From: Candidatus Latescibacterota bacterium
Lineage (GTDB): Bacteria; Latescibacterota; CBDEFO01
Direction of reading: 5' to 3'
Assembly: GCA_965248755.1 (NCBI GenBank)
Contig: OZ252149.1
Location: 1,952,001-2,016,000 of the forward strand
Length of the DNA: 64,000 nucleotides
Shown here one piece after another: positions 5,678 through 61,190 of this stretch. Position numbers and translations under genes: made by a program. Within the stretch, counting starts at the first letter, position 1. Each line of letters begins with the position of its first letter. A model generated the notes under the pieces. The model made no database searches. It saw only the letters and a program-made list of their open reading frames with translations, and was not told the origin of the DNA.

Positions 5678-7449
5678 ATGGAGAAAAGCTATTTCAAACT
5701 TTATATAAGGCTCGTAAAGGAATTTCTACTTCCATATTGGAAGGCTATAGTCACCGCGCTTGTGTGTATGATCTGTATATCGGGGCTGAACGTGATTCCG
5801 GCTCTATCGGTAAAGTTTCTGATCGACGATATTATTCCCGATAAGGATTTGACTTTGCTCGGTCTCCTTGCCGGGGGTCTTGTTGTAGCCTATACTTTGA
5901 GGGCCATCACCGAGTTCGGTCAGGATTATCTAGCTCACAGGGTCGCCGAACAGGTGATGTTCGATCTGAGGGTGCAGGTATACGGACACGTTCAAAAGCT
6001 TTCGTCCAATTTCTTCAGGAACAGGCGCACAGGTGAGATCATGTCGAGGATAATCAACGACATCGATTCTCTAAGGGATATGTTAGCTCACAGCGGTGAT
6101 GCCATTGTAACTCAGAGTTTGAATGTTTTAGTCGTGGCTGCGGTTCTTTCAAACTCCAATGGAAACTTGCGCTCTTTACGTTGATTCCAATTCCTCTCAC
6201 TATCATTTTGGTCCTCTACTTTAATAAGGCTGTGCGTCAGGTGTACCAAAATGTGCGGGAAAAACTTGCGGACGTAAACGCACGGCTTCTGGATAACTTA
6301 TCGGGGATAGAGGTTATAAAGTCGTTTGTAATGGAGAGGCGGGAATTGAACAGATTTGCAGCGGAGAGCAAAGACTATTTCAATGAAAATATGGTAGCTA
6401 TAAAGCTATGGGCATATATATTTCCGACTATGATATTTGTCGTGGGTATTGGATCAGTGATAGTGATTTGGTACGGCGGAGGTCAGGTTATAAGTGGGGA
6501 GCTTACTGTGGGTGGCCTTGTAGCGTTTTCCGCTTTGGCTTGGAGGCTGTACTGGCCCCTTATGGACCTAGGTAGAGAGAACGAGAAGATTCAAAAGGCG
6601 ATGGCGGCTGTGAAGAGGATATTTGAGCTTTTAGATACCGAGCCTGAGATAAAGGACTCGCCTTCAGCGGTGGAGCTTACCCACCCCCGATTGAATCTAT
6701 CGGGGGTTAAAGGGGAGATTGAGTTCCAGGGAGTCTCGTTTGCTTACGACAGGGATTACGTTCTCAAAAATATAGATCTGAAGATCGAGCCTGGGGAAAT
6801 CATCGCACTTGTGGGTCCAAGCGGTGTGGGCAAGACTACTCTGGCGGGATTGATCCCGAGGTTCTACGATCCCGATGAGGGCACGGTTTCGATATACGGT
6901 ATAGACATTAAAGGGATAAAGCTTGAGTCCTTGAGGAGCAATATCGGGATTGTGCATCAGGAGACGTTTCTTTTCAATGGGACGATAGCAGAAAACGTAG
7001 GCTACGGGAAGATAGGAGCTACATTAGACGAGGTAGTTGAGGCTGCAAAGGCGGCGAATATATACGATTTTATATCCGAACTCCCCGATGGGTTTGACAC
7101 TGTGGTGGGAGAAAGAGGAGTCAAACTTTCCGGGGGACAGAAGCAGAGGATAGCTATCGCAAGGGCTATTTTGAAGGATCCGCCCATACTGATTTTAGAT
7201 GAGGCGACTTCATCTGTGGATACGGAGTCGGAACAGCTTATACAGCAGAGCTTGTCTTTCCTTTTGAAGGACAGGATGACCCTCATAATCGCTCACAGGT
7301 TAGCCACGATCAAGTCAGCCCACAGGATAGTGGTCTTAAAGGATGGAGAGATAGAGGAGATAGGGTCTCACTTCGAACTGATAGATAATGGCGGCGCATA
7401 CAGCCGCCTCCACGATGCGCAGTTCGGCAGCCGAGAAGCGGTGGAGTAG
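5678..7449 (+). CDS. MsbA-like ABC exporter (TMD plus NBD), split by one frameshift at about 6147
   Basis: Adding one T to the T run at 6147-6149 joins both ORFs (LFKLQWKLALFTLIPIP); GPSGVGKT, LSGGQKQ and LDEATS motifs. Confidence 0.85.
6683..6707. repeat. CCCGAT-N7-ATCGGG palindrome copy 1, inside the ABC transporter CDS
   Basis: ACCCCCGAT TGAATCT ATCGGGGGT. Confidence 0.9.
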
Positions 7450-7498
7450 TGAATATGCATAGTGGCACTTGTCAGACATAGACGCTATCTAAAAAATT

Positions 7499-7530
7499 GG
7501 CCCCTCCGATGGTGGAAGGGGCCTTCTTCT
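7499..7530. terminator. Probable bidirectional intrinsic terminator
   Basis: GGCCCCT...AGGGGCC stem between convergent genes, with an A tract before and a T-rich tract after. Confidence 0.6.
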
Positions 7531-7589
7531 ATCTACTTCTTACTTGTCAGCTACGCTTCTGGTCTTCTATCTTCTCTGCTCTTCTTTTC

Positions 7590-7874
7590 TTAGACTGGCA
7601 CGTCTTCAATCTTATCCAGGAAGTATATGTCAGGCTGGTCAGCAACACCGGCCCTCTGCATCGCCTCCCGCAAATCCTCAGATTGGACAAACTGACGAGC
7701 CTTCTCCAGATCATCCCACTCAAAGAGGATAACGAGCTCATTGGGGTCATCGGCACTGCGGAAGAGATGCCCCCCTTTCGAACCGCCGGCCTTGCGTGTT
7801 GCCCCGTGCTCATCGAATATAGGCTTCCACTTGGCGTAATCTTCGACTTTATGGCGGACAAGTACGTACGGCAT
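7590..7874 (-). CDS. Small dimeric alpha-beta barrel (cyclase/ABM-like) protein
   Basis: HKVEDYAKWK...DDPNE...EAMQRAGV pattern; GGAGGTGA RBS. Confidence 0.75.
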   Translation of the reverse strand: MPYVLVRHKVEDYAKWKPIFDEHGATRKAGGSKGGHLFRSADDPNELVILFEWDDLEKARQFVQSEDLREAMQRAGVADQPDIYFLDKIEDVPV

Positions 7875-8035
7875 AATATATCACCTCCATTCTTGTAGGT
7901 ATTCTGATAACTACAGTAAAATTTCTTCAGGATATACGATATCTCAGCAATTGTCAAGGGAAAACTCACCCCGCTAGACAAAAAAAAGCTAAAACCGTGA
8001 CAGCTCCGTAACTTAGAATAAAACGGTCTTTCACG

Positions 8036-8725
8036 TCACAGATCAACCCTTCCTTTTACAGCTCTGAAGAGTCCTTGTCGCACCCATTTCGTGGTTTGCT
8101 GCCGACGCCCTGTCCACCCCACCCACGCTTGATCTTCTACGTTTATGCCCGCGCTTTGAAACTCACAGACTAAGTCATTAACTATGTAGCTGCGAAAGCC
8201 CGGAGATTCCAGAAATTCAAACGAAATAACACCCAGAGTTATCCATCTTTTGAGTCCTCCCTCAGGGATCCAGTAATCGCCTACGACCACTCTCTTTTTT
8301 GCTATGCGGGCCATCTCTTTCAGCACTGTCATCCTCTCATTATCCCACATCTCGTGCAGCGACATTGACATTACAACGTGATCGAAGCTCTTATCTCTAA
8401 ACCCTAACTCCCTTGCGTCCATCTGATAAAACTGAGGTATCTTTACGTTTGAATCTTGTATATGCGACGCCTTCGATCTTGCCACATTTAGCATAGCCTC
8501 GGACATATCGACTCCAACGACCTTGGCCCCTTCAAGTGCAGAAAGATATGCCACACCACCTGTCCCTGTACATACATCCAGAAGCTTATCCCCCGGCTCG
8601 ACTCCAGCCAATCGGACGATTTCCCTCCACAAGGGCTGTAAAACACGTCCTATCCTGTCATAGTGCTTTGCCACCCTGTTGAAGAGGCGATACGGCTCTG
8701 TGCGCTTATGTACAGTTGGATCCAT
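8036..8725 (-). CDS. Class I SAM-dependent methyltransferase (UbiE-like)
   Basis: LLDVCTGTG motif I, GVDMSEAML, MDA, SLHEM. Confidence 0.85.
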   Translation of the reverse strand: MDPTVHKRTEPYRLFNRVAKHYDRIGRVLQPLWREIVRLAGVEPGDKLLDVCTGTGGVAYLSALEGAKVVGVDMSEAMLNVARSKASHIQDSNVKIPQFYQMDARELGFRDKSFDHVVMSMSLHEMWDNERMTVLKEMARIAKKRVVVGDYWIPEGGLKRWITLGVISFEFLESPGFRSYIVNDLVCEFQSAGINVEDQAWVGWTGRRQQTTKWVRQGLFRAVKGRVDL

Positions 8726-8735
8726 TTATTCTGAG

Positions 8736-9914
8736 CTATTGACTTTTTCCTTTCAATATCGAATCTGAGATCCTCTCTAACCCATCCAAGAGTATTTCTA
8801 TATCCTCATCAGAATGGGTAGCCATAAGGCTGAGCCTGAGACGGCTCGTCCCCTCTTTGACAGTTGGAGGACGTACCCCCCAAAGGAATATTCCCATTTC
8901 CAGGAGATTTAACCCCGCCTCCATAGCCCGCTCAGCGTCACCTACAAAGATGGGAATAATCTGAGACTCTGATCCCATAGTATCCAGACCCATCTCTTGC
9001 AGGTTTTGTTTGACTGTGCTTACGTTCTTCCACAACTTAGCTCTCAGGTGAGGCTCCCTTTCGACCAGATCAAGCGCAACTATCGTTGAGGCGCACATCT
9101 CAGGCGGCAGTGCTGTGGTATATATGTAGCTCTTGGATCTGTTCCGCAAAAAATCGACTAATTCCCCACTCCCTGCTATGAAGCCCCCAAACGTCCCTAA
9201 AGCCTTGCTTAAAGAACCCATATATACAGGGATTTTGTTTTCTACTTTCAGGCTCTCTGTAACTCCTTTTCCCTTTCCCCCAAAGACGCCCAAGCCGTGT
9301 GCTTCGTCCACCATAAGGGATGCTCCGTACCTTTCGCAAAGGTCGGCAATCTCTCTCAAAGGCGCAATGTCTCCGTCCATAGAAAAGACGCTGTCCGTTA
9401 CCACAAGCCGTCTTCTGAATTTCTGTGCTCTTGTCAGAATCTTCTCTAAACCACCTAGATCCTGATGCTTATACACTAACACTTTAGCTTTGGACGTCCA
9501 GCATGCCTCGATTATGCTGGCGTGGTTCTGCCTGTCTATAATAACAGCGTCGCCTTCTTGTACGAGCGATGTAATGGCACCTAAATTTGCTGTGTATCCC
9601 GATGGGAAGAGAATGGAATCCTCAAGTCCCAAGAACTCTGCTAATCTTTCTTCTAAATGGCGATGTATCTTCGTAGTTCCTGAAATGAGCCTCGACGACG
9701 CCGTGCTGCACCCGTATTCCTCCAGAGTCTCTATTGCAGCCTCCTTCAGCTCAGGACGGTCGGCAAGACCCAGATAGTTATTCGAGCAGAAGACTATTAC
9801 CTCTTTACCGTCTATTTCCACCCTATTTTTCTGTGGCCCCGAGATCACAAGTTCCCGCCGATATAGTCCCTTGTCCTTAATCTTTCTAAGTTCGTCCTTT
9901 AGAAAATCGAGCAT
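8736..9914 (-). CDS. bioF: 8-amino-7-oxononanoate synthase
   Basis: SNNYLGL, SVFSMDGD, VDEAHG, SLSKALG (PLP lysine), RPPTV and RLRLS motifs. Confidence 0.9.
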   Translation of the reverse strand: MLDFLKDELRKIKDKGLYRRELVISGPQKNRVEIDGKEVIVFCSNNYLGLADRPELKEAAIETLEEYGCSTASSRLISGTTKIHRHLEERLAEFLGLEDSILFPSGYTANLGAITSLVQEGDAVIIDRQNHASIIEACWTSKAKVLVYKHQDLGGLEKILTRAQKFRRRLVVTDSVFSMDGDIAPLREIADLCERYGASLMVDEAHGLGVFGGKGKGVTESLKVENKIPVYMGSLSKALGTFGGFIAGSGELVDFLRNRSKSYIYTTALPPEMCASTIVALDLVEREPHLRAKLWKNVSTVKQNLQEMGLDTMGSESQIIPIFVGDAERAMEAGLNLLEMGIFLWGVRPPTVKEGTSRLRLSLMATHSDEDIEILLDGLERISDSILKGKSQ

Positions 9915-9959
9915 CCTCTGCTAATTCCTGTAAGTAGCAAAAAGAGATTGCTTCGCTGT

Positions 9960-11672
9960 CTACGGACTACTGTCTACTTTCTTTTGGGTCCACCAGGTAA
10001 AATCCACGTCCTCAAAGAGGCTGTCCTGTTTCTTACAGGACTCCAAGAATGCCTTATCTTCGTCGGTTATTTCTTTGTTCTTTTCGGCCATATCACAGAG
10101 GCGTTTGAAGTTCTCATAGTGCAGACTTGTCCTCGCCTCAGCGTAATTCCTTGCGTGCCATGTGCTGATTAAAAACTGCCAGTCACTGCTTTGCAAAAGG
10201 AGGAGTTCCACAGCCGCCTGGTCTAATATCTCTTTTAGTTGCCTGTTTTCCGTCCCTTCGAATTTACCAGCCAGCTCTTCGAACCTTTCTTCTGCCTCGT
10301 AGATGTACTTCCACGTCCATTTGGTCCAATCGTTCAGCCATATATAGTGAAATCCTCCTTCGCCCCAACTGCCTTCAGGTATGTGCACAACCGCTTTGGG
10401 GCTGTGACTTTCAAGGTACTCACCGCAGGTGGCTAGGTCAATTTGGCTATCGTTGTGGAGCTTCTTTAGGACTCTGTAGATCCACCTTGGACCCTCAAAC
10501 CACCAGTGACCGAAGAGTTCTCCGTCGTAGGGAGCGACTATGATCCCTTCGTCCTCATTGTAATCGGATAGTATCCCCTTAGCAAGCTCCACAAAGTGAT
10601 CGGTTTGATTTTCCAAGATTTCATCTATCCTTGCTGGCTCGTACTCTTGTTTGTCGCCTAAATCAGCGTTAGTGTCTGTTACCCTCCAGTATCTGTGTCC
10701 TCCCGGAAAGTGTTTTTTGTGAAAGTCCAGATAGTCGCCGTCCCCCGGATAACCCGATTCACCGCTCCAGACCTGAAGTGCTGTCTTTGGGTCTCTGGCA
10801 AATATGGCGACAGGCTTGTTCCCTCCCGGCGAACTTGCCAGATAGTAGGCGTAAGGTGTTTTTTCTCTATCCTCCTCTTTGGGCTGATAAGATCTGGCGA
10901 ACTGCTCCCACAATCTCTTGAGGCCCTCAAACCTGTCTATATAGACGCCTACAGCTTTCCCTCCTCTCAGAAGGTGCGAATCTATTATAAAATACTCTAT
11001 CCCCTCATCGAAAAGGAATTCCTCCACTCCCGCTCTTAAGGTTTTCTGACCTCCGCCCTCTTCAAGGGGCGATGCCCACTCGTATCTGGGTCTGTAAGCG
11101 CACTCTGGGAGCCAGATCCCTCGGGGTCTTCTCCCGAAATGCCTTTCGTAGGTAGTCACTCCCCCTCGTATCTGAGCTCGTACCGAAGAATCCCTCCCCA
11201 GAAGGGGGAGATAGCCGTGTGTGGCAGCCGATGTGATGATCTCTATATGCCCGTCGTCCTGGAGCTTTCTGAACGCGCTTGTGATGTCTGTGTTATATCT
11301 GTTCTCAAAATGATCTCCTACCCTCTCGTAGAAGTCGATCCAAAATTGCGCAAGATACGCTTTGTGACCGTCTCCGTATCTTTGGAATTCATCCCTATCG
11401 GTCTGAGCCGACTCTATCTTCTGCTTAAGGTATTCCTCGAAGTTCTGCTTGAATCTTCTGTCCTTAAGCTGCTCGCATAAAACCGGGGTCAAGCCCACTG
11501 TGATCTTGGGAGAAATGCCTTCAGCTTCAAGGTCGTACAGCGCATCCAGGACGGGGATATAGGTCTCCGAAGCGGCCTCATTCAGCCAATCTAAGCCGTG
11601 AGGCCATTTTCCGTGCGATATGACGTAGGGAAGATGATTATGCAAAACCAAAGCGAGATAACTTTTTGCCAT
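9960..11672 (-). CDS. GH57 1,4-alpha-glucan branching enzyme (DUF1957)
   Basis: HNHLPYV, WLPECAY, DGELFGHWWFEGP and QSSDWQF motifs. Confidence 0.92.
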   Translation of the reverse strand: MAKSYLALVLHNHLPYVISHGKWPHGLDWLNEAASETYIPVLDALYDLEAEGISPKITVGLTPVLCEQLKDRRFKQNFEEYLKQKIESAQTDRDEFQRYGDGHKAYLAQFWIDFYERVGDHFENRYNTDITSAFRKLQDDGHIEIITSAATHGYLPLLGRDSSVRAQIRGGVTTYERHFGRRPRGIWLPECAYRPRYEWASPLEEGGGQKTLRAGVEEFLFDEGIEYFIIDSHLLRGGKAVGVYIDRFEGLKRLWEQFARSYQPKEEDREKTPYAYYLASSPGGNKPVAIFARDPKTALQVWSGESGYPGDGDYLDFHKKHFPGGHRYWRVTDTNADLGDKQEYEPARIDEILENQTDHFVELAKGILSDYNEDEGIIVAPYDGELFGHWWFEGPRWIYRVLKKLHNDSQIDLATCGEYLESHSPKAVVHIPEGSWGEGGFHYIWLNDWTKWTWKYIYEAEERFEELAGKFEGTENRQLKEILDQAAVELLLLQSSDWQFLISTWHARNYAEARTSLHYENFKRLCDMAEKNKEITDEDKAFLESCKKQDSLFEDVDFTWWTQKKVDSSP

Positions 11673-11697
11673 TAAAATCGTCTCCTAACCTTAAATG

Positions 11698-11828
11698 AGT
11701 AGACAGGCAAAAGCGTAGCCACAAAGACACTAATGTTTTATCTCTTTGTGCATCTTTGTGTCTTGGTGCCTTAGTGGCTAATGGGAGGTGGTGTCCCTGT
11801 TTACTGACTACTGTCTACTGTTTACTAT
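11698..11828. repeat. Intergenic repeat cluster: GTAGACAG / CTACTGT heptads around a GCCACAAAGACACTAA...TTAGTGGC inverted repeat
   Basis: TAGCCACAAAGACAC pairs with CTTTGTGTCTT...TTAGTGGCTA; tandem ACTACTGTCTACTGTTTACTA. Confidence 0.65.
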
Positions 11829-11829
11829 T

Positions 11830-13284
11830 TTATACTTCTTTTTCCTTCCATTTGCCTCTCTTGAACCAGTATATCATTAACGACCCTCTAACAATCCCTG
11901 TGACGCTGATGGCCCACCAGACGCCGTTTATGCCCAGGGGGATCGAAAAATAATGTGCAAGGGGGATTCTGGCTATAGTCAACGGAACCGAAATTACGGT
12001 TGGCGGGATAGTATCTCCCGCTCCTCCGAACGCTCCCTCCAAAACCGATTCAATTCCCATGAAGATCTCCGCGATTGCGATGATCTTTAGATAATTGGAG
12101 CCAATTCTTACAACTTCCGAATCCGATATAAAAATCGAGATAATGTAAGCCGGCAAGGTAAGATATATGACGGCGAAAAAACCGTTTATTACCGAAAGTA
12201 TGCCACAGGTCTGCCAGGCTGTGGACTCTGCTCTTCGGGGTTTTCCCGCTCCCATGTTCTGTCCTACCAGAGTCGAAACTGCTGTGGAAAACGCTATGGC
12301 TATCATGTAGGATATAGACTGGACCTTATGTCCTGCTCCGAGAGCCGCTACTGCCTCTGTCCCGAATTTAGTTGTGATTTTGGTCAAGAACATGAAGACG
12401 ATGCATATCAAAAATCCCGCTACAGCTACCGGTATGCCTATCCTCAGTATCCTCCACATCAACTTCAAGTCGAGCTTTTTAGCGCCAAACGATATTGGGA
12501 TTGTCTTGGCTCTGCTCAAGAGGATGTAGAAAGCCACGATGATTCCTGCCGCTCTGGAGATGACAGTAGCAAGGGCGGCCCCCGCCACTTCCAGCCTTGG
12601 AAAGGGTCCCAGGCCGAAGATCAAAAATGGGTCCAGTGCGGCATTCAAAAGGACCGACATAAAGAGCACTTTCATAGGAGTCTTCGTATCACCGCTTCCC
12701 CGAAAGATAGCATTTATCGTCGTAAAGAGGAAGATCGTTGAGACTCCCCCAAACATCGTGCGCAGGTACCCTGTACCCATGGAGGTTACATCTTCGGCAG
12801 TGCCCATAAGGTCAAAAAGAGAAAAGCTGAAGTAAAGCCCCAGAGTCCCCACGATCGCAGAAAATATGACACAAAGGAGTAACCCATGGCCGGCCACGTA
12901 GGAAGCCGTCTTTGTGTCCCCTGACCCTGTAAACCGCGCCACCATTGCTGTTACTCCTACGGCGATCATCTCCGTCAGTGCAAATACGCTCCAGACTACG
13001 AATCCGGCAGTGCTGACAGCCGCCAGGGCAGCCGGACCCAATCTCCCGACCCAAATGGCATCTACTATATTGAAGGCGGTCTGAAGGAGCATAGAGACCA
13101 CGATGGGCCATGCTAAAAACACTATGTTTTTAGATATGTTCCCTGTAATTAGTCTGTTATCCGCAGTCTTTTGCAATGTTTCTTGCAAAGCTTCTTTCCT
13201 CTGTTTATAAAGAATATTTGCTGTATCTTCTTTGCTTGATAGTCGACTCCCTGTCTGATACTTTGTCGCATCAAATAATAACAA
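11830..13284 (-). CDS. MATE family efflux transporter (true start probably downstream of 13284)
   Basis: RGSGDTKTP, GQNMGAG and GAGDT repeats; about 12 TM helices. Confidence 0.9.
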   Translation of the reverse strand: MLLFDATKYQTGSRLSSKEDTANILYKQRKEALQETLQKTADNRLITGNISKNIVFLAWPIVVSMLLQTAFNIVDAIWVGRLGPAALAAVSTAGFVVWSVFALTEMIAVGVTAMVARFTGSGDTKTASYVAGHGLLLCVIFSAIVGTLGLYFSFSLFDLMGTAEDVTSMGTGYLRTMFGGVSTIFLFTTINAIFRGSGDTKTPMKVLFMSVLLNAALDPFLIFGLGPFPRLEVAGAALATVISRAAGIIVAFYILLSRAKTIPISFGAKKLDLKLMWRILRIGIPVAVAGFLICIVFMFLTKITTKFGTEAVAALGAGHKVQSISYMIAIAFSTAVSTLVGQNMGAGKPRRAESTAWQTCGILSVINGFFAVIYLTLPAYIISIFISDSEVVRIGSNYLKIIAIAEIFMGIESVLEGAFGGAGDTIPPTVISVPLTIARIPLAHYFSIPLGINGVWWAISVTGIVRGSLMIYWFKRGKWKEKEV

Positions 13285-13419
13285 TGGCTGAAGACAAAGT
13301 CAATCGAAATGCAGAAACATTCCACAAATCCTTAAGTACAGTTGACCTCTGGCAAGATCGGGGCAGCTTTAGGAACACAATTCATAAGGAAAGGTTGAAA
13401 CGCTCTTCATAAGGAAGAT

Positions 13420-13704
13420 TAAGATGTAGTGGCATAGAGTGTGGCCACTGCAAGCTGACGGTGCGTGAGGAATTGCCGGGGCAACAAAAAGGTCGTAGGT
13501 GACCTTGCCATCCCCGATCGATTCTATCGGGGAAGAACTTTTTGGGGGACAAAGGAATTGGAGGTCTTAAAAAAAGCCGTGGCAGATGATAAAAGCGGAA
13601 AAGTAAAGATCACTGTCGAAAATGAAGGTGCTCCTGACGCAGATCTAATTGGAAATCTGAACACGCACGATATTCCCAGCAATTCTAGTGCCGGACGAAG
13701 CTAG
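13420..13704 (+). pseudogene. Possible degraded heavy-metal-associated (HMA/CopZ-like) gene
   Basis: SGIECGHCKLTVREEL resembles GMxCxxC; the frame breaks afterwards and the segment contains palindrome copy 2. Confidence 0.35.
13511..13533. repeat. Palindrome copy 2
   Basis: TCCCCGAT CGATTCT ATCGGGGA. Confidence 0.85.
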
Positions 13705-14675
13705 GTGATTAGCTGATTTGCAAGCTCACGGTACTTCCCGGCGAGTGTTGGAAGCCTCTGTGTGTCACGTTCAATCATCGACGCGACTTTGGGCTGCACC
13801 GTCAATCGATCTTCGAGGAATACAGAACTGCACGCTTTACGAAGGTAATTAACGAATCCAAGCTTCAAGTCTTCGCGCGTCAGTGCTGCTCGCTTTCTGT
13901 ACGCGTGTATGAAGTGAGACGCCTTTTACACGTTCGAAGGGCCAAAACCTGAATTGAAGCACGCAAGCATTATGAACATCACCACATCCTCGACTGCGTG
14001 ACCAGTCCGAACGTGTTCGAGGTCAAGCAGGGCGGTCACATCACCATCGCTGTTGAATAGCAGGTTCTCGTTATGGTAGTCACCATGGATTAGCGTGGAT
14101 GACCCAACCGCCATATTTTCAGCTTCTCGAAGTCTCGTCAGTATTTTCGACTTAATCGTCAATAAACGGGTGACGAGATCTGCACTGTCTTTCCGTTGGA
14201 ATTTCCGCAATGTTCGATGCAAGCGTCTAATTGCGGTCGAATGGTCTGTGCGCTGCTGATCCGAAGACTCAAGACGCAGGCAAGAGTACCCGCGGAGCTC
14301 GTGCAGCTTGACCAAGAGTCCTGCAGCTTTGCTGAGCGAGTTCTGTGTTAGCGAGCGTTCGTGCAGCGTAATGCCAGGGACTAATGGGTAAAGTGCGTAC
14401 AGTCTTCCGTGAATGACAGCATGACGGCCACCGGTGACGCTTTTAACAGGCTCAACAAAAGGTATGTCGTTGTTCTTAAGGAATATAGTAACTGCCTCAA
14501 GTCTCAGTGCCCTTGCTACTGAACCCTGATATCGTTTCAGAATAAGCTCACGCTCACCACATCTGACGACGTAGTTTTCTGCGGATACGCCACCCGCATA
14601 CTTAACGACACTGATGTCCGAGGTAGCGTATTTCTCGCACAACTCCCGCATTATACTGTGGCCCAAATATCTCAT
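13701..14675 (-). pseudogene. APH / homoserine kinase type II-like phosphotransferase with an internal TAA at 13926-13928
   Basis: HGDYHNENLLF and LLDLE motifs; the frame stays open for about 74 codons after the TAA, to a TAG at 13701. Confidence 0.7.
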
Positions 14676-14816
14676 CGTGTCCCTGCGTTCGCGAGGATCA
14701 TCTCGGGGACACGGCATTCCCTGGCCATGGCCCACTTTCCGCGGTAAACTCCAAGATCAAGTTTCTGATCTAATATGCGACTTCTCCCTATAAAAGCTAA
14801 GGTACTGCATAACTAA

Positions 14817-15187
14817 GGTTGCACTAATTTAGCTCTTGGACAGCTTATTGATAGAGTAGTTTTCTAATAAGTGGAAGGAGATTTTCGTGGCGATGGTTGA
14901 AGCGCCACTCGAGTTCTTTAAGATAAAGGTGGAAGTAGTTCTTGTCAATACCTCCCCGATAGAATCAATCGGGGATCGCTGGTAAAGCCAGTGTTTGGCA
15001 TATGACCAGAAGCCTTCCACTCCATTGAGGTGATCTCTTCCTTTAGCTATTCCTTTCTCTTTGGGCACTACCACATGATTGCCACTGATAGAAAGGGAGG
15101 CATAGGCTATCCAATCAACAGTATAATATAAGCTCCCTGGTTTGGTGTGTTGGGCAATAAGAGGAAGCAGTGACTTTCGACTCCTTG
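14817..15187 (-). mobile_element. IS1595 (ISXO2-like) 3' remnant, cut by IS256 and interrupted by palindrome copy 3
   Basis: HLNGVEGFWSYAKHWL...GIDKNYFHLYLKELEWRFNHR motif across a frameshift. Confidence 0.85.
14953..14975. repeat. Palindrome copy 3
   Basis: TCCCCGAT AGAATCA ATCGGGGA. Confidence 0.9.
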
Positions 15188-29480: not shown

Positions 29481-30772
29481 TGTAGTGTGCCCCAGGAAAG
29501 CGACACCAATTAAGCAACTTGGGGTAGCAGATAGAATTGTTTTCTTCACTCTTCCGGGGTCTTGTACCCCAGGGATGAATGAAGACGGTTCTTGTTGTAA
29601 TTATCGATCCACTGAGATATGACCTTCTCAGCCTGTTCAAAGGATACAAAATTGTGAAGCCAAACACACTCTTGCTTGAGGGTCCTGAAAAAACGCTCTA
29701 CAACACCGTTCCAATCAGCCTTGCTACCTGGAATGTATTCTTGACGGATCCCCTAATATTTGGTGCTTGCCAAATAGGCCCGAGCCAAAAAGATGGAACC
29801 ATTGTCAGAGCGCAAAGTGAGACCCTGGGGGACAGCCTCCTTGGAAGTGTATCGAGAGATCACGGCCCGATCCAGGGCATCTGTGGCCTCCAGTGCCCTC
29901 CCTCTTCGACTAAAACGATACCCAGGAACCTCCCGACTCCCGTTGTCCACTACCGCAATAAGAGGACACCAACCATCTTTTCCACAATAGATCTTGGTCA
30001 AGTCAGCCGACCAGAGACTGTCAGGACGATCCATCACAGAACGCTTCTGGGCAACCTGTGTCTCCTTTCTCCCGGGACGATTCCACAGCTTACACTAGCC
30101 ATCCCTTAAGCTTCATTATCCTATGAACCTTCTTGATGTTGACACATGCCCCTTCCTTGAAACGAAGATGCGCCCAAACCCGCCTGTGACCAAATGCCTC
30201 TTCTTGGTCGAGTATCCCTCAAATACGAAAAGCAAGCTGTTCATCTATCACAGGCTCTTTGACAGAAGAACTGACACCTCTATCCCTAAGCCTATACAGA
30301 GTCGAACGATGCAAACCCAAAGCCATAGCTACCACCTTGCGGAAATAGCCTCGACCCCAAAACCGTCCACTCAAGACAACCGCTTCGTTTTTTTTAGACG
30401 GGCTGCCCCCGGAGTATCTCCAACTGGAGCGTCAACTGCCCTACCTTGCGCTCCAACCGGCTGACCTCCCGCTCCTTCGGATCCTTGCGACCACGCCGAG
30501 ACTTCAGACTCTCCTGGCCTCCTTCTAAGAAACTATCACGCCAAGCATACGCCTGTGACTGGCTAATTCCATTCTTCCGACACACCTCTGATACATCCAC
30601 TCCACTTAAAAGAGCCAACACAACCTCTGCCTTACGGGTCGCCGTCCAGCGCTTACCATCTTTCACTTCGGGGCTTGACACTGTGACCTCCTTTCCCCGA
30701 TAGTATCACTAGGGGACAAGCCGCAAACCCCAATTTGCAAATTCTTTGTCGCTCTGTCAAGGGGAGCGGTAT
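29481..30772 (-). mobile_element. Degraded IS3-family element (orfA 30394-30681; fragmented orfB)
   Basis: OrfA RWTATRKAEVVL..ERKVGQLT; OrfB WSADLT, LRSDNGS; HSSLGY-like end; imperfect TIRs sharing AGCGACA. Confidence 0.8.
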
Positions 30773-31166
30773 GCTTGTTCATCACCAGCTAACCATAAAT
30801 GCCTTTCGGTCAACTGTATGGCATTGCGGCTAACGTCTTAAGATACCCACCTTGGCTCGCCAGAGTTGCCGGGAGGCGCAGCGCCTGTCGTCGAAGCCGG
30901 AGAGAACCTGGTGAGCTTCACCTGCGACGTTCGAGGGGACATCAATCCGCGAGCCTTTGTGACAGTAATCAGCCGGGGTGAGTCGCTATAGAAACTTCTT
31001 GAATATTCCCTTAACGTTCTGTGAAAAAGTTTTGGCATAGGTGGTCGCAGAGCCTTCACTCCCTGCACTGAGCCAGATGTGCGAAGCGTTTTCCAGGTGT
31101 CTGAGAAACTTTCTCACATAATCTGTCCTAATCATTCCTCTGTCTCAATCATTCCAAGGAGGCCTG

Positions 31167-31190
31167 CCCCCGATTGATTCTATCGGGAGG
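31167..31190. repeat. Palindrome copy 4
   Basis: CCCCCGAT TGATTCT ATCGGGAGG. Confidence 0.85.
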
Positions 31191-31770: not shown

Positions 31771-32064
31771 TCAGTTTACAAGAATCTTGTCTAAACTCTC
31801 AACCTCCAGATCACTTGGTACTTCTATGTCCGCGCTGTAGTGTTTACGAGGATTATAATCAAAAGGAATAGTACTAGGGTACGATATTGATAAATTTGGA
31901 GGGAAGGTACAAAATAAGATAGGAGATGTCAATTGAAATCGGGCAGGTTTTGTCTCACAACAAAATATCACTCTTAATAAGAATGAATTCCTAAGTAGGC
32001 CAATTCTGGCCTGTCGAATGAAGCCACGAAATCCTATCCCTATTATACTTGCCTGTATAGTCAA
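31771..32064 (-). CDS. Hypothetical protein overlapping the SIR2 stop codon
   Basis: 97-aa ORF with TTGA overlap; no recognisable motif. Confidence 0.3.
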   Translation of the reverse strand: MTIQASIIGIGFRGFIRQARIGLLRNSFLLRVIFCCETKPARFQLTSPILFCTFPPNLSISYPSTIPFDYNPRKHYSADIEVPSDLEVESLDKILVN

Positions 32065-34858: not shown

Positions 34859-34974
34859 TGTAATCGAAAGTTCCGTTAATAAGTGAGACTTCCAGCGTGA
34901 TCCCCGATTCGTCTTTCGAGGCTATACCTAATATACTTCTTAATATCCTAAAATCAAGCGTCTTATGTTGCTCT

Positions 34975-34995
34975 CTCCGATTGAATATATCGGGG
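34975..34995. repeat. Palindrome copy 5 (slightly degenerate)
   Basis: CTCCGAT TGAATAT ATCGGGG. Confidence 0.75.
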
Positions 34996-35187
34996 CTATG
35001 CCTGGTGTGAACAAAAATTCCTTTACATTAGCATGTTTCTTCTATATTTTAAGAATGAGAATACGCCTCCGATATGGACAGTAGGGCAATTCAAAATCCT
35101 AATATTATATAAGAAAAGGAACTATTTGATAGATGTGGTGGAAAAGATAACAGACCTATATAGAGTTCCACTTAAGAAAACAAAAAT

Positions 35188-38100: not shown

Positions 38101-38367
38101 TTGAGACAGTTTACGGACGACCAAGAAATCTATCGCAAAAAAGTGATCAAGCAATTGGAAGAAGGCGGCCTGCCAAAGCAGACTACAAAGAAAACGCTTC
38201 AAGAACTGAAGCGGGAGTTAAAAAACGGTGTAAACCCTTTGAAAATGCTTGCGGTCCTGCAAAAGAATATCCCCGTTGAATTTCTGCAGGGCCACATTGC
38301 AGAAGGGGCCGCGCACACCTTTGGTCCAAGAGAAGTTATCTTGTCTGAATATTTGATCGGTGAATAA
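35188..38367 (+). CDS. PLD-nuclease / SNF2-like helicase fusion
   Basis: HAKLY...TGSSNFT PLD motif; DVVGLGKT, DEAH, TATP and QRVGRVNR helicase motifs. Confidence 0.9.
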   Translation: MKSDLTFITNEENINLLDRFKVLIKDTKFFDVLVVYFYTSGFYALYKALEETQKIRILIGISTNRRTVEHIRKSQQEVMQFSHAETKHHFSDLIADEMENTEDSKRVEEGVVKFLEWLQNGKLEIKAYPTENIHAKLYVMSFEEGDRDAGRVITGSSNFTQAGLVDNLEFNVELKNRTDYEFAKDKFDELWENAVDVKDKYIQTIQERTWLNNTITPYQLYLKFLYEYFKDEISRTDEVFFKYVPTEFKKFEYQEQAVLNAKKILEEYGGVFISDVVGLGKTYMSAMLANQLDGRTLVLAPPVLLEKANPGGWPNVFSDFRVAADFESLGKLDQVIRRGTEKYKNIFIDEAHRFRTESNITYEKLAQICRGKRVVLVTATPYNNSPTDILSQIKLFQNAKKSTIPNVPNLESFFGRLEKNAKDLDRQKDHDKYIKITKENAKAIREQVLKYLMVRRTRAEIEKFFSDDLKNQKLKFPEVVDPEAVFYELNDDENKIFNKTVELVAQKFKYVRYTPMLYYKGEVTQPETLAQRNMGKFMKILLVKRLESSFYAFNNSVGRFITSYERFLEELERGNVYVSKKHTNKIFELLENDDDEAIQKLIDKDKARTYAAKDFRSKFKEDLAYDLGILREIQSLWREVERDPKLLSFVNLLFSRTILQKNKLIAFTESRETAEYLARKLEQNFPGAVLSYTGKSSAAVREKVIENFDARARFPKDDYRILISTEVLSEGVNLHASNIVINYDIPWNPTRLMQRVGRVNRVDVTFDKIYTFNFFPTEQANDQIKLREAAEAKIHAFITLLGTDARLLTEGEAIESYELFDRLISKNTITGEGESVESELEYLQTIRTIRDNDPDLFAKIKRLPKKARTARQHDDAESQLLTYFRKGKLQKFFLVGNGEPEELDFISAAKQLKVEENTAREKLGSGFYEMLDKNKKAFEFATMEEELPELKRKGGRDSASQLHKILKAMKDLRQFTDDQEIYRKKVIKQLEEGGLPKQTTKKTLQELKRELKNGVNPLKMLAVLQKNIPVEFLQGHIAEGAAHTFGPREVILSEYLIGE

Positions 38368-41300: not shown

Positions 41301-41710
41301 CTAAAAAACATGAATTTTATTTGGATACAGAAGGTTATTATGTCAATAATTCGTGCTATCTGATTGTTTCTGGCGATAAATTTTTGTTAAGTTTTTTAAA
41401 TTCTAAATTGTTTGAATGGTTCAAGCGTTTGAAATTTGTAGCTTATGGTGATGCAGAGGGAGGTGGCCGTTGTAAGCTGGATTACAATAAAATGATAAAC
41501 GTGCCAATAGCAAAAATCTCAAATTCTGACCAACAACCTTTCGTCACCATTGTTGACCACATCCTTGCCATCACCAAAGATGATGATTATCCGCAAAATC
41601 CGCAAAAGCAGGCAAAGGTAAAAGCGCTGGAGGGGGAGAGTGACCAGATGGTTTACCAACTCTACGACCTGACTGAGGAGGAGATACGCATTGTGAAAGG
41701 TGAGAAATAA
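38367..41710 (+). CDS. Eco57I/TaqI-like N6-adenine DNA methyltransferase with C-terminal TRD, frameshifted at about 40916
   Basis: LNGGLF, YYTPREIV, DPAIGSGAF, NPPY; downstream RGITTG, LRACNYY..FEKPKI and VYQLYDLTEEEI. Confidence 0.88.
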
Positions 41711-45556: not shown

Positions 45557-45579
45557 CCCCCGATAGATTCAATCGGGGG
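45557..45579. repeat. Palindrome copy 6, flanked by TAG on both sides
   Basis: CAGTAG CCCCCGAT AGATTCA ATCGGGGG TAGACAG. Confidence 0.9.
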
Positions 45580-45599
45580 TAGACAGGGCACCTCACCCT

Positions 45600-45775
45600 T
45601 CCCTTGAGATTGCTTCGGGGCTTTGCCCCTCGCAATGACTAAGGCAAAAACAAGCAACGTCATTGTGAGCAAAGCAAAGCAATCTTGTAGACAGTAGACA
45701 CTTCACCCCTTCTCCGTATAATGTAGGAGCTGGGTTACCCAGCCCTTGGGGCGAGGGAACCTCGCCCCTACGAAT
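45600..45775. repeat. REP-like cluster: GAGATTGCTTCG..TCGCAATGAC and its inverse, GTAGAC heptads, and a GTAG-type hairpin pair
   Basis: GAGATTGCTTCGGGGCTTTGCCCCTCGCAATGAC / GTCATTGTGAG..AAGCAATCT; GTAGGAGCTGGGTTACCCAGCCC..GGGCGAGGGAACCTCGCCCCTAC. Confidence 0.75.
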
Positions 45776-45820: not shown

Positions 45821-46807
45821 ATGGCAGAGAACCACACGATATTAGAGGTCAGCGACCTCAAGAAGTATTTCCCCATAAAAAAAGGCATTTTTTCCAGAAC
45901 TGTCGGTCACGTCAAAGCCGTAGACGGCGTATTCTTCTCTATTAAAAAGGGGGAGACATTAGGTCTTGTAGGCGAAAGCGGCTGCGGTAAGACTACGACG
46001 GGGAGACTCATCCTCAGACTCATAGACCCCACCCAGGGAAAAGTCACCTTCGACGGGGTGGACATATTCTCCCTTGAGAAAAGACAGATGAGAGCGATGC
46101 GCCGAAGGATGCAGATAATCTTCCAGGACCCGTACAGTTCCCTTAATCCCAGAATGACCGTGGGAGGTATGTTGAAGGAAGCCATAAAGATACACAAGCT
46201 TGTCCCCAAGGATGGGATAAAGGACCGAATAGCCGAACTGCTGAGGGTCGTAGGCCTTTCGCCCGACCATATACGGCGTTACCCTCACGAATTCAGCGGT
46301 GGACAGAGACAGAGGATAGGAATAGCCAGAGCCTTAGCTGTAAATCCCGACTTCATTATCGCGGACGAACCGGTCTCCGCCCTCGACGTCTCAATCCAGG
46401 CTCAGATACTCAACCTTCTGCAGGATCTCCAGGACCAATTTAACCTGACCTATCTTTTCATAGCGCACAACTTAAGCGTAGTAGAACACATATCCGCTAA
46501 AGTAGCCGTGATGTACCTTGGGCGCATCGTGGAAATGGCAGACCGCAAAGCCCTCTACGCATCGCCACAACATCCCTATACACAAGCCCTGATGTCCGCC
46601 ATCCCCGAACCAGTGCCGAAGAAGAAAAAAGACAGGACAGTCCTTACAGGAGACGTCCCGAGCCCTGCTGCCATACCCTCAGGATGCCCTTTCCATCCAA
46701 GATGTCCCGAAAGGATAGAGCAATGCAAAACTATAGTGCCCCAATTAAAGGACATAGGGGATGGACATCTTGTCTCCTGCATAAGGAGGGGGGAAAAGGC
46801 TGTGTGA
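45821..46807 (+). CDS. oppF: Oligopeptide ABC ATPase (OppF-like)
   Basis: [24 protein letters not shown] and CPFHPRC. Confidence 0.9.
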
Positions 46808-46881
46808 AACTGAGTGAAAACAGACAGTATAACAGACATTCTTGTCTGTACAGTAGACAGTTGAGATTACTTCGTCAGCCC

Positions 46882-46904
46882 TCCCCGATAGATTCAATCG
46901 GGGA
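46882..46904. repeat. Palindrome copy 7, followed by a partial extra arm
   Basis: TCCCCGAT AGATTCA ATCGGGGA then TTGAATCGGGGGG. Confidence 0.9.
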
Positions 46905-47030
46905 TTGAATCGGGGGGAAATGCCTGACCCACCACACTTGGGGAAAGCCCTTACTGAATCTCTACAGACAGTAGACAGACCGATTTTGGGAACTTACAAA
47001 CCACTTAGGTGTCATTACACATTATGTAGT

Positions 47031-56496: not shown

Positions 56497-56542
56497 TCAG
56501 ATGCCCTCAAGAAGCGTATAGATCAGGCAAATCGAGCAGGCT

Positions 56543-57783: not shown

Positions 57784-57891
57784 ATGCCGATGAGTCCGCA
57801 AGAGAGAATGATGACTGCCCTGAGAAGGGAGGAGCTGGATCGAGTTCCTTATTGTGAACTGGGGATAGACCGGGACCTTGCCCGAAGGTGA
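57784..57891 (+). pseudogene. N-terminal stump of a uroporphyrinogen-decarboxylase-family protein
   Basis: MSPQERMMTALRREELDRVPYCE matches the MTxxER...PDRVP start; truncated. Confidence 0.55.
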
Positions 57892-59093: not shown

Positions 59094-59232
59094 AGGACAA
59101 GACATCTTGCCCTTAGGAACCTTCACGCCAACCACTCTGGCAACTGACAATGTGTGCAACGTCATCTGAATAACCGACGTCTACCGAACGGACGATCGTG
59201 GAGAAATCTTCACTTTTCTGATAGGCTGCCTT

Positions 59233-60768
59233 ATGCTATCAAAGGTACTAAGTAGCGCTACGCTGGGTATAGATGCCTATCTTGTCGAGGTTGAGACCGA
59301 CATAGACCGACAATTGCCCTCGTTTTCCATAGTCGGACTCCCTGATGCTGCGGTAAAGGAGAGCAAGGACCGAGTCGCCGCCGCTATTAAGAACTCCGGC
59401 CTCCTGTTCCCGCAGAAGAGGATCACAGTGAACCTGGCTCCGGCCGACATAAGGAAGGAGGGTTCTGCCTTCGACCTCCCTGTGGCTGTCGGCATTCTGG
59501 CCGCCACAAAGCAGGTTGAGCCGGGCTTCCTGGAGGACTACATGCTCGTTGGGGAACTCTCTTTAGACGGCTCGCTCCGACCGATAAGGGGCGTTCTCTC
59601 TATGGCGGTGGATGCAAAAGAGCGCGGACTCAGGGGTATTATCCTACCGAGGGAGAACGTCAAAGAAGCCGCAATGGCTGGACCTGAACTTGAGGTCTAT
59701 CCTGCCTTAAGCCTATCTGAGTCCGTCGGATTTCTCAACAGAGAGATTGCTCTACAGCCCCTCAGATTCGATATTGGACAGGTCTTTGCACAGAGCGGGG
59801 AATACACACTCGACTTTTTGGACGTCAAAGGCCAGGAGCATGTCAAAAGGTCCTTGGAAGTCGCCGCAGCAGGGGGACATAATATCATTATGATAGGCCC
59901 TCCCGGATCTGGCAAGACTATGCTTGCTCGCAGACTTCCTACTATACTCCCCGATCTTACGCAGGAGGAGGCTATCTCCACGACTAAGATACACTCTGTG
60001 GCCGGTCGCCTTGACGAAGATACAGCCCTCATAACTACTAGACCCTTTCGCTCTCCGCATCACACAATTAGCGACGCCGGACTTATCGGAGGAGGTCCCA
60101 ATCCGAAGCCTGGAGAGGTAAGTTTAGCCCATCACGGCGTACTATTCTTGGACGAACTGCCCGAATTTAAGAGATCTGTGCTGGAAGTTCTAAGGCAGCC
60201 CATCGAAGACGGAAGAGTCACAATATCCAGAGCCGCGGTCTCCCTTACCTATCCATCAACCTTCATGTTAGCCGCTGCGATGAATCCCTGCCCCTGCGGG
60301 TATTTTTCCGATCCTAACCGCGAGTGCACCTGCTCTCCACTTCTGATCCAGAGATACATGTCCAAAATATCGGGACCGCTGTTGGACAGGATAGATATAC
60401 ACATCGAGGTCCCCGCAGTCCGCTATAAGGAACTATCCGGGAACCCTACAGGCGAAAAATCAGAACTCATAAGGAAAAAGGTGAACAGGGCAAGGCAGAT
60501 TCAGCAAGCCAGATTCAAAGGATTGTCTGATACGTTCTGCAACGCCCAGATGGAATCCAAACAGATAAGGACGTTTTGCAAGATAGACGAAAAGGGGAAT
60601 GAACTCTTAAAGACGGCTATAACGAAGCTAGGTTTGTCCGCAAGGGCTTACGACAGGATTCTCAAAGTCTCAAGGACCATAGCTGATTTGGAGGGAAGTG
60701 AACACATACTTCCTCAGCATGTGGGCGAAGCCATACAGTACAGGAGTCTGGATAGGAATCTACTGTGA
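59233..60768 (+). CDS. comM: ComM/YifB Mg-chelatase-like AAA ATPase
   Basis: [32 protein letters not shown] and MNPCPCG motifs. Confidence 0.93.
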
Positions 60769-60769
60769 G

Positions 60770-60915
60770 GGTATCACCGGGATATGGAGACACCTGATAA
60801 GCTGTTCAGCGTTCCACGGCAGCTGCTGAAGCGCGGATACAACCAATCTGATATAACCAAGATCCTGGCGGCAACTGGCTCGAACTCTTTGGGAGGTATG
60901 GGGCGAGTGATCTTG
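60770..60915 (+). pseudogene. C-terminal remnant of an M19 membrane dipeptidase
   Basis: LLKRGYNQSDITKIL(G)GNWL pattern across a frameshift. Confidence 0.55.
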
Positions 60916-61001
60916 AGGGGAAGCCTTTAGTCTAAGGGACGCCAAGCACTTCGCATGTTAGACTTCGAATACGATCAAATTCTGCAGATGAGGTGAAGAG
61001 A

Positions 61002-61190
61002 ATGGAACTTGGAAAGATCCTATATCTTTCCGGCAAAGATGTAGAAGACATCAATTTACCTATGAGCCAAATCATCCGATCCCTTGACCAGATGTTTAAG
61101 TATAAAATGGAAGGAAAACCTGTTTTCCCTCCTCAATTCCCGATTGATTCTATCGGGGATCACGAGGATCAATCTGCACAGGTCTTATAG
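61002..61190 (+). pseudogene. N-terminal stump of an ornithine cyclodeaminase / mu-crystallin family gene
   Basis: ILYLSGKDVE...IIRSLDQMF....GK...PP; similarity ends at palindrome copy 8. Confidence 0.65.
61138..61159. repeat. Palindrome copy 8
   Basis: TCCCGAT TGATTCT ATCGGGGA. Confidence 0.88.

Follow-up and report, generated by a model that had tools for sequence, protein, structure and literature searches.

A 23-nt mobile hairpin in a Candidatus Latescibacterota genome, homologous to the stem-loop of CGTC-type REPs

Small hairpins that move are already known, and the multiplication of repeats of 20 to 30 bases without a transposase of their own is an open question that the 23-nt family described here (the 23-mer) addresses. 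The SDRs of Nostoc punctiforme, which Elhai et al. are said to have described in 2008, are reportedly mobile hairpin repeats of 21-27 nt, with coding regions among their sites, for which no mover is known. The 23-mer shares the size, the mobility and the presence in coding DNA reported for the SDRs, but comes from another phylum and is set apart from them by description. SDR5 inserts into HIP1 (PMC4390886, accessible sections), precisely and into a fixed octamer, whereas the 23-mer uses a degenerate YYNR/YNRR target with deletion or duplication of target bases. GTAG REPs and REPINs with their RAYT are also short, dispersed, mostly extragenic hairpins moved in trans (PMC3116915 and PMC3733652, in the parts available), but the 23-mer has no GTAG tag (the 4 nt to the left read GTAG in 12 of 452 copies), neither of our two main genomes has a RAYT, and single units are gained, the inverted doublet not being the mobile unit. 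As with the Rickettsia palindromic elements, the 23-mer is found in frame in conserved proteins, where it adds about 6-9 residues; of the Rickettsia elements, RPE-1 exceeds it in length, and RPE-4 and RPE-6 belong to the footed CGTC repeats (PMC3733652, accessible sections). The GC42 clusters of yeast mitochondria offer an analogy only: they too are small palindromic mobile DNA without a gene of their own, with target duplication, unit merging, altered flanks and an unresolved mover, but they are 42 nt long, reside in organelle DNA and use an AG target dinucleotide (PMC4478555, accessible sections). A MITE mobilised by a DDE enzyme would differ from the 23-mer, which has no target duplication of fixed length. 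The closest systems are the CGTC REPs, described as having no dedicated transposase (Di Nocera et al. 2013, PMC3733652), and, with NTS/dRS3, the Ssn-related motifs (SRMs), whose expansion by the Ssn GIY-YIG single-strand nucleases has been proposed (Chenal et al. 2025, PMC11893778); the sections of both accounts that were covered contain no footless mobile form and no insertion footprint. The main text of the accessible articles yielded no description of this 23-nt family, including by literal search of four motif strings.

The window is a stretch of 64,000 nt from the source genome (G000), a single contig that is 98% complete, which we compared with a sister genome of another species (G001). 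The original prediction placed eight copies of a palindromic micro-element in the window, and 8/8 were recovered with starts within one base (14 strand matches at eight places); 100 shuffles of the window gave no match to the pattern. The two loop variants it described (TGAATCT/AGATTCA and TGATTCT/AGAATCA) were borne out, as were the single loop change in each of copies 2 and 5 and the unpaired outermost loop bases, seen in 8/8 copies. Each of the eight folds as DNA with a 7-nt loop, and a joint fold of the nine window copies with four relatives has seven pairs, two of them with compensatory changes. The eight left out a ninth copy with two mismatches at 30694-30716. An assembly artefact, which had been raised as a possibility, fails as an account, since contigs from the runs of three other studies span copies 1-3 (X5 and X6 bridge copy 1; X5, X6 and X8 bridge copies 2 and 3), with no indels at these copies among the rows listed.

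Copy 1 (6684..6706, plus strand, CC..GG ends) sits in frame in an MsbA-like ABC transporter, in the linker between membrane domain and ATPase, where it reads PRLNLSG. The transporter is 7 residues longer than 10/10 phylum homologues, and the copy is common to G000 and G001. The claim that one copy lies in an intact coding sequence stands as to reading frame, which is kept, and falls as to the window gene, which a 1-nt deletion near 6150, unrelated to the copy, has split in two; G001 has the orthologue intact. Copy 2 (13511..13533, plus strand, TC..GA ends, one loop change) lies between MatE and APH-family genes, is common to both genomes and has a filled paralogous site at 811445-811513 of G000. 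The copy said to lie inside an IS transposase is copy 3 (14953..14975, minus strand, TC..GA ends, net +20), which shifts the frame of an IS1595-like transposase stump (14834..15089, minus strand, two frames); the label rests on a weak PF12762 match below the cut-off (E 0.011), and both genomes have empty paralogues of the site. Other copies had also been placed in gene stumps, which is confirmed for copy 3 and not for the rest. The ninth copy (30694..30716, minus strand, net +27) is a GCTTG-tailed variant inside a decayed copy (29481..30774) of a multi-copy element that we take to be IS3-type from its transposase motifs. This element has 69 near-full-length matches in G000, and its site is filled in 4 copies and empty in 73. 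Copy 4 (31167..31189, plus strand) is GCCTG-tailed and non-coding, with a paralogous stretch at 922696-923013 of G000. Copy 5 (34974..34996, plus strand), decayed and common to G001, lies between divergent spermidine-synthase-like and helicase genes. Copy 6 (45557..45579, minus strand, CC..GG ends) directly follows the stop codon of an oligopeptide ABC ATPase; its host is a GTAG-type (CTGTCTAC) repeat followed by CGTC REPs, which agrees with the claim of a copy inside another repeat. Copy 7 (46882..46904, minus strand, TC..GA ends), 5' of an IS1380 gene and common to G001, adjoins a half copy of the family, a probable nested insertion. Copy 8 (61137..61159, plus strand) is found 25 bp 3' of the stop codon of a pterin-binding (folP-like) gene and has no T tail.

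The consensus of the element is YC-CCCGAT-TGAATCT-ATCGGG-GR. Contrary to the view that the arms extend by variable C/G runs, the unit is a fixed 23-nt hairpin whose end pairs covary: across 452 independent copies of G000 the outer pair is paired in 345 (shuffle mean 202, maximum 232), mostly as TC..GA (186) or CC..GG (120), and there is no pairing excess beyond 23 nt. Loop type is linked to end type, TGAGTCT occurring 23:0 with TC..GA ends compared with 90:70 for TGAATCT (p 1e-5). Copies are mostly single units at a median spacing of 5.6 kb, with 10% of the gaps below 500 bp, and they show neither replichore bias in G000 nor orientation bias relative to transcription (141:135 in intergenic DNA, 27:30 in genes). 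G000 holds 506 copies within two mismatches and G001 carries a similar load, at about 250 exact cores per genome. The element is confined to one genus of 49: 164 of 168 phylum genomes have no match, and the 2 of the 166 other genomes that have one carry a single copy each. Core scans across wider genomes returned at least 80 and at least 120 loci; viral contigs gave no exact 19-nt core; the wider pattern occurred there at 16 loci, all of them lacking an Ssn match. Part of the copy number is passive carriage inside IS copies and other repeats.

The comparison of filled and empty orthologous sites, set beforehand as a check, revealed empty sites: 17 of the 110 scored G001 copies and 12 of the 101 scored G000 copies (about one in seven) have an unfilled counterpart, and about 85% of the scored sites are common to both species. 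A third batch of G001 tiles added few further events. Where the element frameshifts IS open frames, with 15 filled and 56 empty IS3-type copies, gain is the direction of change. The element is real and mobile, and the 23-mer is gained at new sites as a whole unit with two end types. The empty sites and the gains that frameshift IS genes support the original prediction of a very small selfish element spread in trans; its interpretation as a whole is partly supported.

The net sizes of the 26 simple filled/empty pairs were +18 (three), +19 (six), +20 (seven), +21 (two), +26 (one) and +27 (seven), with none of 22-25. In 18 of the 26 events (net +18 to +21) about 2-5 target bases were thus replaced, and the remaining 8, at +26 or +27, carry 3-4 extra bases, often a target duplication; in 4 of the 7 +27 events the tails are non-target (donor-type) and not duplications. 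Direct repeats flank the 23-mer above expectation at 4 nt (18/452 copies, 2.6 expected, maximum 10) and at 3 nt (42/452, 11.8 expected, maximum 23), with no enrichment at 2 or 5 nt in the same copies; in clean contexts the 3-nt duplications (14, with 5 expected and a maximum of 19) lie inside the shuffle range. The flanks follow a rule, YYNR-element-YNRR: of 150 repeat-free copies, 67 have YYNR on the left and 63 have YNRR on the right, where about 19 would be expected, and 15 of 18 duplications fit YYNR. YYNR is favoured 5' of both junctions, the rule following each junction and not one centre. Removed 4-mers unlike the element ends (TCGT, GCGT, CTGC, and TCTA in 18 of 36 self-nested matches) show that the ends are supplied by the donor. 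Insertion leans to the loops of other hairpins and to the element's own loop, and self-nesting occurs.

The motif had been thought different from those of known REPs, yet it is homologous to the stem-loop of the CGTC-type REPs, or SRMs. A near-identical stem-loop is the body of CGTC/Ssn-related motifs in one class of Deltaproteobacteria, twice beside an Ssn-size GIY-YIG gene that SRMs with this hairpin flank (L282 and L297, in genomes G095 and G105); the SRM hairpins there share the 23-nt geometry and differ at 2-3 of 19 nt. One metagenome locus carries the core unchanged within an SRM frame. Footed cores make up 55/55 in G095, 12/16 in G105, 18/32 in G064, 40/87 in G061 and 0/39 in G098. None of the 252 cores in G000 or the 83 in the G001 tiles is GTCATN-framed, and the conserved SRM 3' tail (TCYRG / CCA) is absent from the G000 family, in which the right flank is YNRR only. 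The 23-mer thus differs from SRMs and CGTC REPs in lacking the GTCA foot, the TCCAG tail and, in G000, an Ssn gene, and its loop has 7 nt compared with 4-5 nt in the CGTC families described in the accessible sections of PMC3733652 and PMC11893778. Intragenic copies occur in both, and CGTC REPs are the preferred hosts of the 23-mer: of the 452 copies, 137 (30%, background 8%) have a CGTC repeat no more than 60 nt away, and of the 46 copies that sit in loops of CGTC REPs 43 are oriented like the hairpin in SRMs, a 43:3 bias that a few founder composites may account for. As a detector, the degenerate SRM pattern from the literature was uninformative because it gave 23 matches in G000 and 31 in the reversed genome.

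The reading that we favour, with a confidence just short of even, is that the family is a non-coding, non-autonomous 23-nt mobile hairpin, an SRM stem-loop minus its foot, with Ssn-type nicking in trans as the candidate means of movement. It would have originated from an SRM stem-loop by loss of the foot, presumably in the direction from SRM to free form. The two ends would be joined separately, each where one strand is nicked 3' of YYNR, and host repair synthesis would copy an existing copy into the break; depending on how far apart the nicks lie, target bases would be lost or duplicated. For the nicking, the likeliest candidate would be an Ssn-type GIY-YIG single-strand nuclease of small size that acts in trans, is present in G001 and would have been lost from G000. 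SsnA requires sequence 5' of the hairpin for cutting, and its cut falls upstream of the hairpin rather than in the loop (PMC11893778, sections covered), so a footless 23-mer should itself be a poor substrate. A wider proposition, which we hold possible but lean against, is that of transposase-free mobile DNA, in which Ssn-repeat stem-loops would escape as 19-23-nt units and be repair-written at paired independent Ssn nicks. If it is true, it names Ssn as the mover that CGTC REPs and SDR-like micro-elements lack, and it explains how copies identical to the letter come to lie in distant phyla.

In G001 an intact GIY-YIG gene of 93 aa lies between SRMs, flanked by a hairpin different from the 23-mer, and G000 keeps gene-less copies of that unit. 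The sole GIY-YIG match in G000 is a 608-aa, UvrC-sized frame; family search, motif scan and tblastn found no small GIY-YIG there, and of the RAYT/TnpA, GIY-YIG or RT genes flanked by the motif, for which a search had been suggested, none was found in G000. No Ssn-size gene was found in G000, G061, G063 or G064, and G062 has a partial short GIY-YIG match only, with no match to the G001 protein. Ssn-like genes occur in 37 of the 168 phylum genomes, 35 of these 37 having no core match, and the hairpin is nearby at 2 of 31 Ssn-like loci, as footed relatives. In the class of G061, whose genomes are incomplete and related, carriers have an Ssn match in 10 of 21 cases and non-carriers in 18 of 75. 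The multi-copy protein families of G000 are IS genes and repeat proteins, with no candidate mover. IS110 was rejected as a mover, being present in 2 of 5 carriers and absent from G000, and the 51 G000 genes with a copy on both sides look ordinary from their N-termini.

That no mover gene was found in G000 would also fit spread without a dedicated enzyme, in which stalled forks and the tips of hairpins undergo template switching guided by microhomology, or short gene conversion, using flanks similar to those of an existing copy, with hairpin swapping among REPs and IS carriage doing the rest; we consider this doubtful. Removed target bases are often like the element ends (TCGA in 3 of the 6 +19 events), the loop is inverted at one site, and footprints vary, from the donor-type tails given above to replacements of 9 and 14 nt in the Deltaproteobacteria host repeat. 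Both flanks match one other copy over at least 4 nt in 20 of 140 clean copies (permuted 8.2, maximum 15), several of which are diverged paralogous hosts. The sharp modes at +19/+20 and +27, the exact unit of 23 nt (or 19 nt), the YYNR-type duplications and the confinement to one genus are hard to obtain from generic slippage.

An HUH Y1 transposase of the IS200/IS605 or RAYT type, acting on single-stranded DNA, cutting 3' of a tetranucleotide and since lost from the genus, would explain a hairpin donor and a tetranucleotide preference local to each junction. TCAA/TTGA may resemble IS200/IS605 cleavage sites, GTAG-type repeats are still present in G000, and G061-G064 have Y1 genes. Y1 insertion is clean, however, unlike that of the 23-nt hairpin, which deletes or duplicates target bases. 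PF01797 is unmatched in both G000 and G001, a tblastn search using two Y1 proteins as queries found no remnant, and 0/8 of the fetched Y1 loci of other carriers had the hairpin, all of which makes a Y1 mover improbable. We rate as very unlikely that the element is captured where a type II topoisomerase, or a DDE transposase of the abundant resident IS families, cuts both strands with a 4-nt stagger. The many IS copies of G000, the footprints of minus 4 and plus 4 and the symmetric flank consensus would fit such cuts, and in E. coli REPs are targets of gyrase (PMC3733652, accessible sections). Against it, two transposase ends do not fit into 23 nt, the stagger is variable, from 5 bases lost to 4 duplicated, and the flank rule is tied to each junction. 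Even less probable is a resident reverse transcriptase that copies stable RNA hairpins into DNA at nicks. Deletions and duplications of variable size are what target-primed copying produces, and G000 has two RT domains; neither is flanked by the 23-mer, orientation is unbiased to transcription and the donor length is exact. A like idea has been raised for the yeast mitochondrial GC clusters (PMC4478555, accessible sections). The least probable reading of all, and one already disfavoured for the origin of the element, is that selection maintains or spreads it as a functional site of the host, be it an operator, a terminator or a nucleoid-protein site. The strong sequence conservation and the sites common to both species would fit this reading, but divergent spacers are depleted (48/402 against 20%, p 1e-5), T tails are rare (6/452 against 2.9% background), orientation and replichore are unbiased, copies break IS genes and most phylum genomes have no match. 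The original prediction, too, had held that the distribution does not suit operators or terminators.

The family offers before/after pairs, a junction rule (YYNR per end, 5 bases lost to 4 duplicated) and a link by homology to Ssn-flanking hairpins, and with two candidate proteins named, the GIY-YIG proteins of G095 (L282) and G001, the question of the mover becomes testable in vitro and in E. coli. Its insertions also disable IS genes and extend proteins by short peptides. The same pairing of footed and free forms was seen for a shorter hairpin family beside an Ssn-like gene (L284).

The original prediction placed eight copies of a short palindrome in the window, and 14 strand matches were indeed found at these 8 places, against 0 in 100 shuffles; a relaxed search of the window added a ninth copy at 30694-30716. 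In the source genome, a single contig of 4.54 Mb, CCGAT-N7-ATCGG occurs at 311 sites, whereas any other spacer of 0-15 nt gives 3-32. Allowing up to two mismatches to the 19-nt core yields 506 copies, and none when the genome is reversed. The objection raised at the outset, that the motif could be an adapter or assembly artefact, does not hold, because window positions 5600-14717 are identical to contigs of one run containing the entire stretch and copies 1 to 3 are spanned by contigs from runs of three other studies.

Merging copies with common flanks left 452 independent copies in the source genome, which define a 23-nt unit, YC-CCCGAT-TGAATCT-ATCGGG-GR, with covariation of its outer pair (TC..GA in 186 copies, CC..GG in 120): it is paired in 345 copies, where shuffles average 202 and reach at most 232. 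No pairing excess was found at positions further out in these 452 copies, and intact copies fold as DNA into an 8-bp stem with a 7-nt loop. Loop and end types are linked, with TGAGTCT accompanied by TC..GA in 23 of 23 copies and TGAATCT in 90 of 160 (p 1e-5), and therefore the 23-mer is copied as a whole from donor lineages. The source genome also contains 39 copies of a shorter sister family built on a 15-nt core (for example at 58723, 142827 and 1021778); the unit of this family is 19 nt with mostly CC..GG ends, and it nests at one constant position within the 23-mer loop.

Mobility of the element itself is near certain. We compared the source genome with about 1.4 Mb of partly overlapping loci from the sister Latescibacterota genome, the DNA being 94-96% identical. 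Among 528 source copies 101 were scorable, 12 of those being unfilled in the sister, and among 217 sister copies 110 were scorable, 17 of those being unfilled in the source; a few of the unfilled sites are nested or decayed. In a multi-copy insertion sequence, which we take from its transposase motifs to be IS3-type, one site is filled in 15 copies and empty in 56 (net +20) and a second is filled in 4 and empty in 73 (net +27). Where the element shifts a transposase reading frame, gain is the clear direction. In the window, copy 3 is a +20 insertion within an IS1595-like stump and copy 1 lengthens the linker of an ABC transporter by 7 residues relative to 10 of 10 homologues. High-scoring open frames make up 56% of the genome by our own gene calls, and only 37 of the 506 copies are located well within one, so coding insertions have mostly been purged; peptides read from the retained ones are SPIESIG, SPIDSIG, PRLNLSG and PDRFNRG. 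The transporter gene (5678-7449) is also broken in two where a T run near 6150 has lost 1 nt; its frame is intact in the sister genome and in sequencing runs X5 and X6, and the contig of run X1 agrees with the window. One site filled in both species (3243847 in the source genome, L018:15079 in the other) shows opposite loop orientations, which would reflect either two separate insertions or a flip of the loop between the arms.

For the insertion footprint, 6 nested or complex cases were excluded from 32 event clusters, and the 26 kept gave net sizes of +18 (three events), +19 (six), +20 (seven), +21 (two), +26 (one) and +27 (seven). At +19, four target bases were swapped for the 23-mer (TCGA three times, TCGT, GCGT, CTGC). 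An adjacent A was changed to G in 4 of the 7 events at +20, and therefore the donor can supply one extra base. Of the +27 events, three duplicated the target (TCAA in two, and TTGA with one change in the third) and four have a non-target (G)CYTG-type tail. Across the 452 copies, direct repeats of 4 nt flank 18 (expected 2.6, shuffle maximum 10) and those of 3 nt flank 42 (expected 11.8, maximum 23), periodic hosts accounting for part of the 3-nt class; repeats of 2 and 5 nt were not enriched. When the count is confined to the 150 copies free of repeats, the 4-nt class alone exceeds all shuffles (10 against 1.5, maximum 7).

Of the 452 copies, 137 (30%, against 8% of intergenic positions) have CGTC-type REP sequence no more than 60 nt away, 84 (19%, against 5%) have GTAG-type repeats nearby, and 90 are surrounded by a flanking stem of at least 5 bp (52 in swaps, maximum 74). 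The element also nests in its own loop, where the identical four bases are replaced in 18 of 36 nested hits, and three loci have the single form in one of the two species and the nested form in the other. Copies in CGTC REP loops, 43 of 46 in one orientation and with about six junction types, may have spread as composites. Dense intergenic GTAGACA/CTGTCTAC tandem repeats and CGTC REP pairs occur at window 11780-11835, 45565-45700 and 46800-47000. A multi-copy Deltaproteobacteria repeat (loci L067, L074, L081 and L108, and metagenome loci) received two independent insertions, with empty copies alongside; the two insertions deleted 9 and 14 bases, and one of them displaced a small pre-existing hairpin.

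The wider core pattern matches 4 of 168 genomes of the phylum, with 252 matches in the source, 276 in the sister and 1 in each of two others. A scan of all genomes gave at least 80 loci; among the matches listed, 65 came from the sister record, 13 were titled Deltaproteobacteria, 1 Thermodesulfobacteriota and 1 a contig titled archaeon, and copy numbers in five of these genomes were 18, 6, 2, 3 and 1. The contig of the archaeon match (L098), which may be misbinned, is 3.5 kb long and has a single exact copy. Metagenomes gave at least 120 loci, and among the matches listed 6 had a BLAST match to the source genome.

In one Deltaproteobacteria class the hairpin family is present in 21 of 96 genomes, in 14 of them behind a GTCAT foot, as in Ssn-related motifs (SRMs; foot, hairpin and tail), the motifs that go with the small GIY-YIG single-strand nucleases called Ssn. 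Footed cores number 55 of 55 in genome G095, 12 of 16 in G105, 18 of 32 in G064, 40 of 87 in G061, 0 of 39 in G098 and 0 of 252 in the source. G095 has a 92-aa GIY-YIG gene, its product 68% identical to the sister Latescibacterota protein, with motifs of the form CGTCA-hairpin-TCCAG on its flanks; over the 19 positions of the element core, their 23-nt stem-loop has 2-3 changes. A G105 locus, with a GIY-YIG gene and hairpin-bearing SRMs, resembles that of G095. Motifs of this type are described for Ssn nucleases by Chenal et al. (PMC11893778) and go under the name CGTC REPs in Di Nocera et al. (PMC3733652). The exact core within such a frame was found at one metagenome locus. The element is homologous to an SRM stem-loop yet not itself an SRM, since the SRMs of G095 and G105 contain near-identical stem-loops and the source genome has no footed core. 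The free form may have derived from the footed form or may have invaded it. Footed and free relatives of the 15-nt-core sister family adjoin an Ssn-like gene in locus L284, and exact GTCATTGCGA feet, a motif flanking Ssn-like genes in L291, L296 and L303, number 188 in the source genome.

The sister genome has an intact 93-aa GIY-YIG gene (L121, G001:C4:479839-480117) between SRMs of a different, NTS-type hairpin. The source genome lacks this gene and keeps six gene-less copies of the unit (four two-armed, two partial); its counterpart region lies at about 974600-976500, and the sister seems to duplicate a segment around the gene. Our tentative reading, which we put a little below an even chance, is that nick-and-copy insertion by an Ssn-type nuclease would drive the element. 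Against it, the element hairpin is nearby in only 2 of 31 Ssn-like loci, and 35 of the 37 phylum genomes (of 168) with Ssn-like genes are without any core match. Also counted against it are the Ssn-like genes of the Deltaproteobacteria class, present in 10 of 21 hairpin carriers and 18 of 75 non-carriers, and the statement of Chenal et al. (PMC11893778) that SsnA depends on the foot for cleavage, which takes place upstream of the hairpin. Enzyme-free template switching would dispense with the nuclease, and we consider it unlikely, at about one chance in four. A Y1 enzyme since lost is a doubtful candidate, roughly half as probable; RAYT/Y1, IS110 and RT genes showed no better link to the element than Ssn. 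Staggered-cut capture is very improbable: among the 150 repeat-free copies the left flank reads YYNR in 67 and the right flank YNRR in 63, where about 19 would be expected, and this rule holds at each junction irrespective of spacing, a pattern that points to two separate nicks and not to a single fixed stagger. Reverse transcription, facing the same absence of a closer RT link, is slightly less probable again. Host function is the least credible: operator and terminator readings fail, as had been anticipated from the distribution, with no orientation bias to transcription or replichore among the source copies, rare T tails and depleted divergent spacers (48 of 402, p 1e-5).

Two reverse-transcriptase domains are present in the source genome, at 3731598-3733370 and 3677787-3679310; the first adjoins a gene resembling a retron effector and a putative IS3-type copy.

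Mobile hairpins of such small size are already a known kind (Nostoc SDRs). A literature search that included the literal motif strings, and took in main texts with a minority of subscription papers, found no description of this 23-nt family. New here are a fixed 23-nt unit whose ends are linked, a footprint in two modes that includes a duplication class, the YYNR rule at the junctions, and a gradient from footed to footless forms whose relatives flank Ssn genes. The window also contains a restriction-modification-like island at 35188-41710 (a low-GC helicase/PLD-domain gene, an Eco57I-type methylase and a TaqI_C fragment), accompanied by broken SIR2-like frames at 31771-33087.
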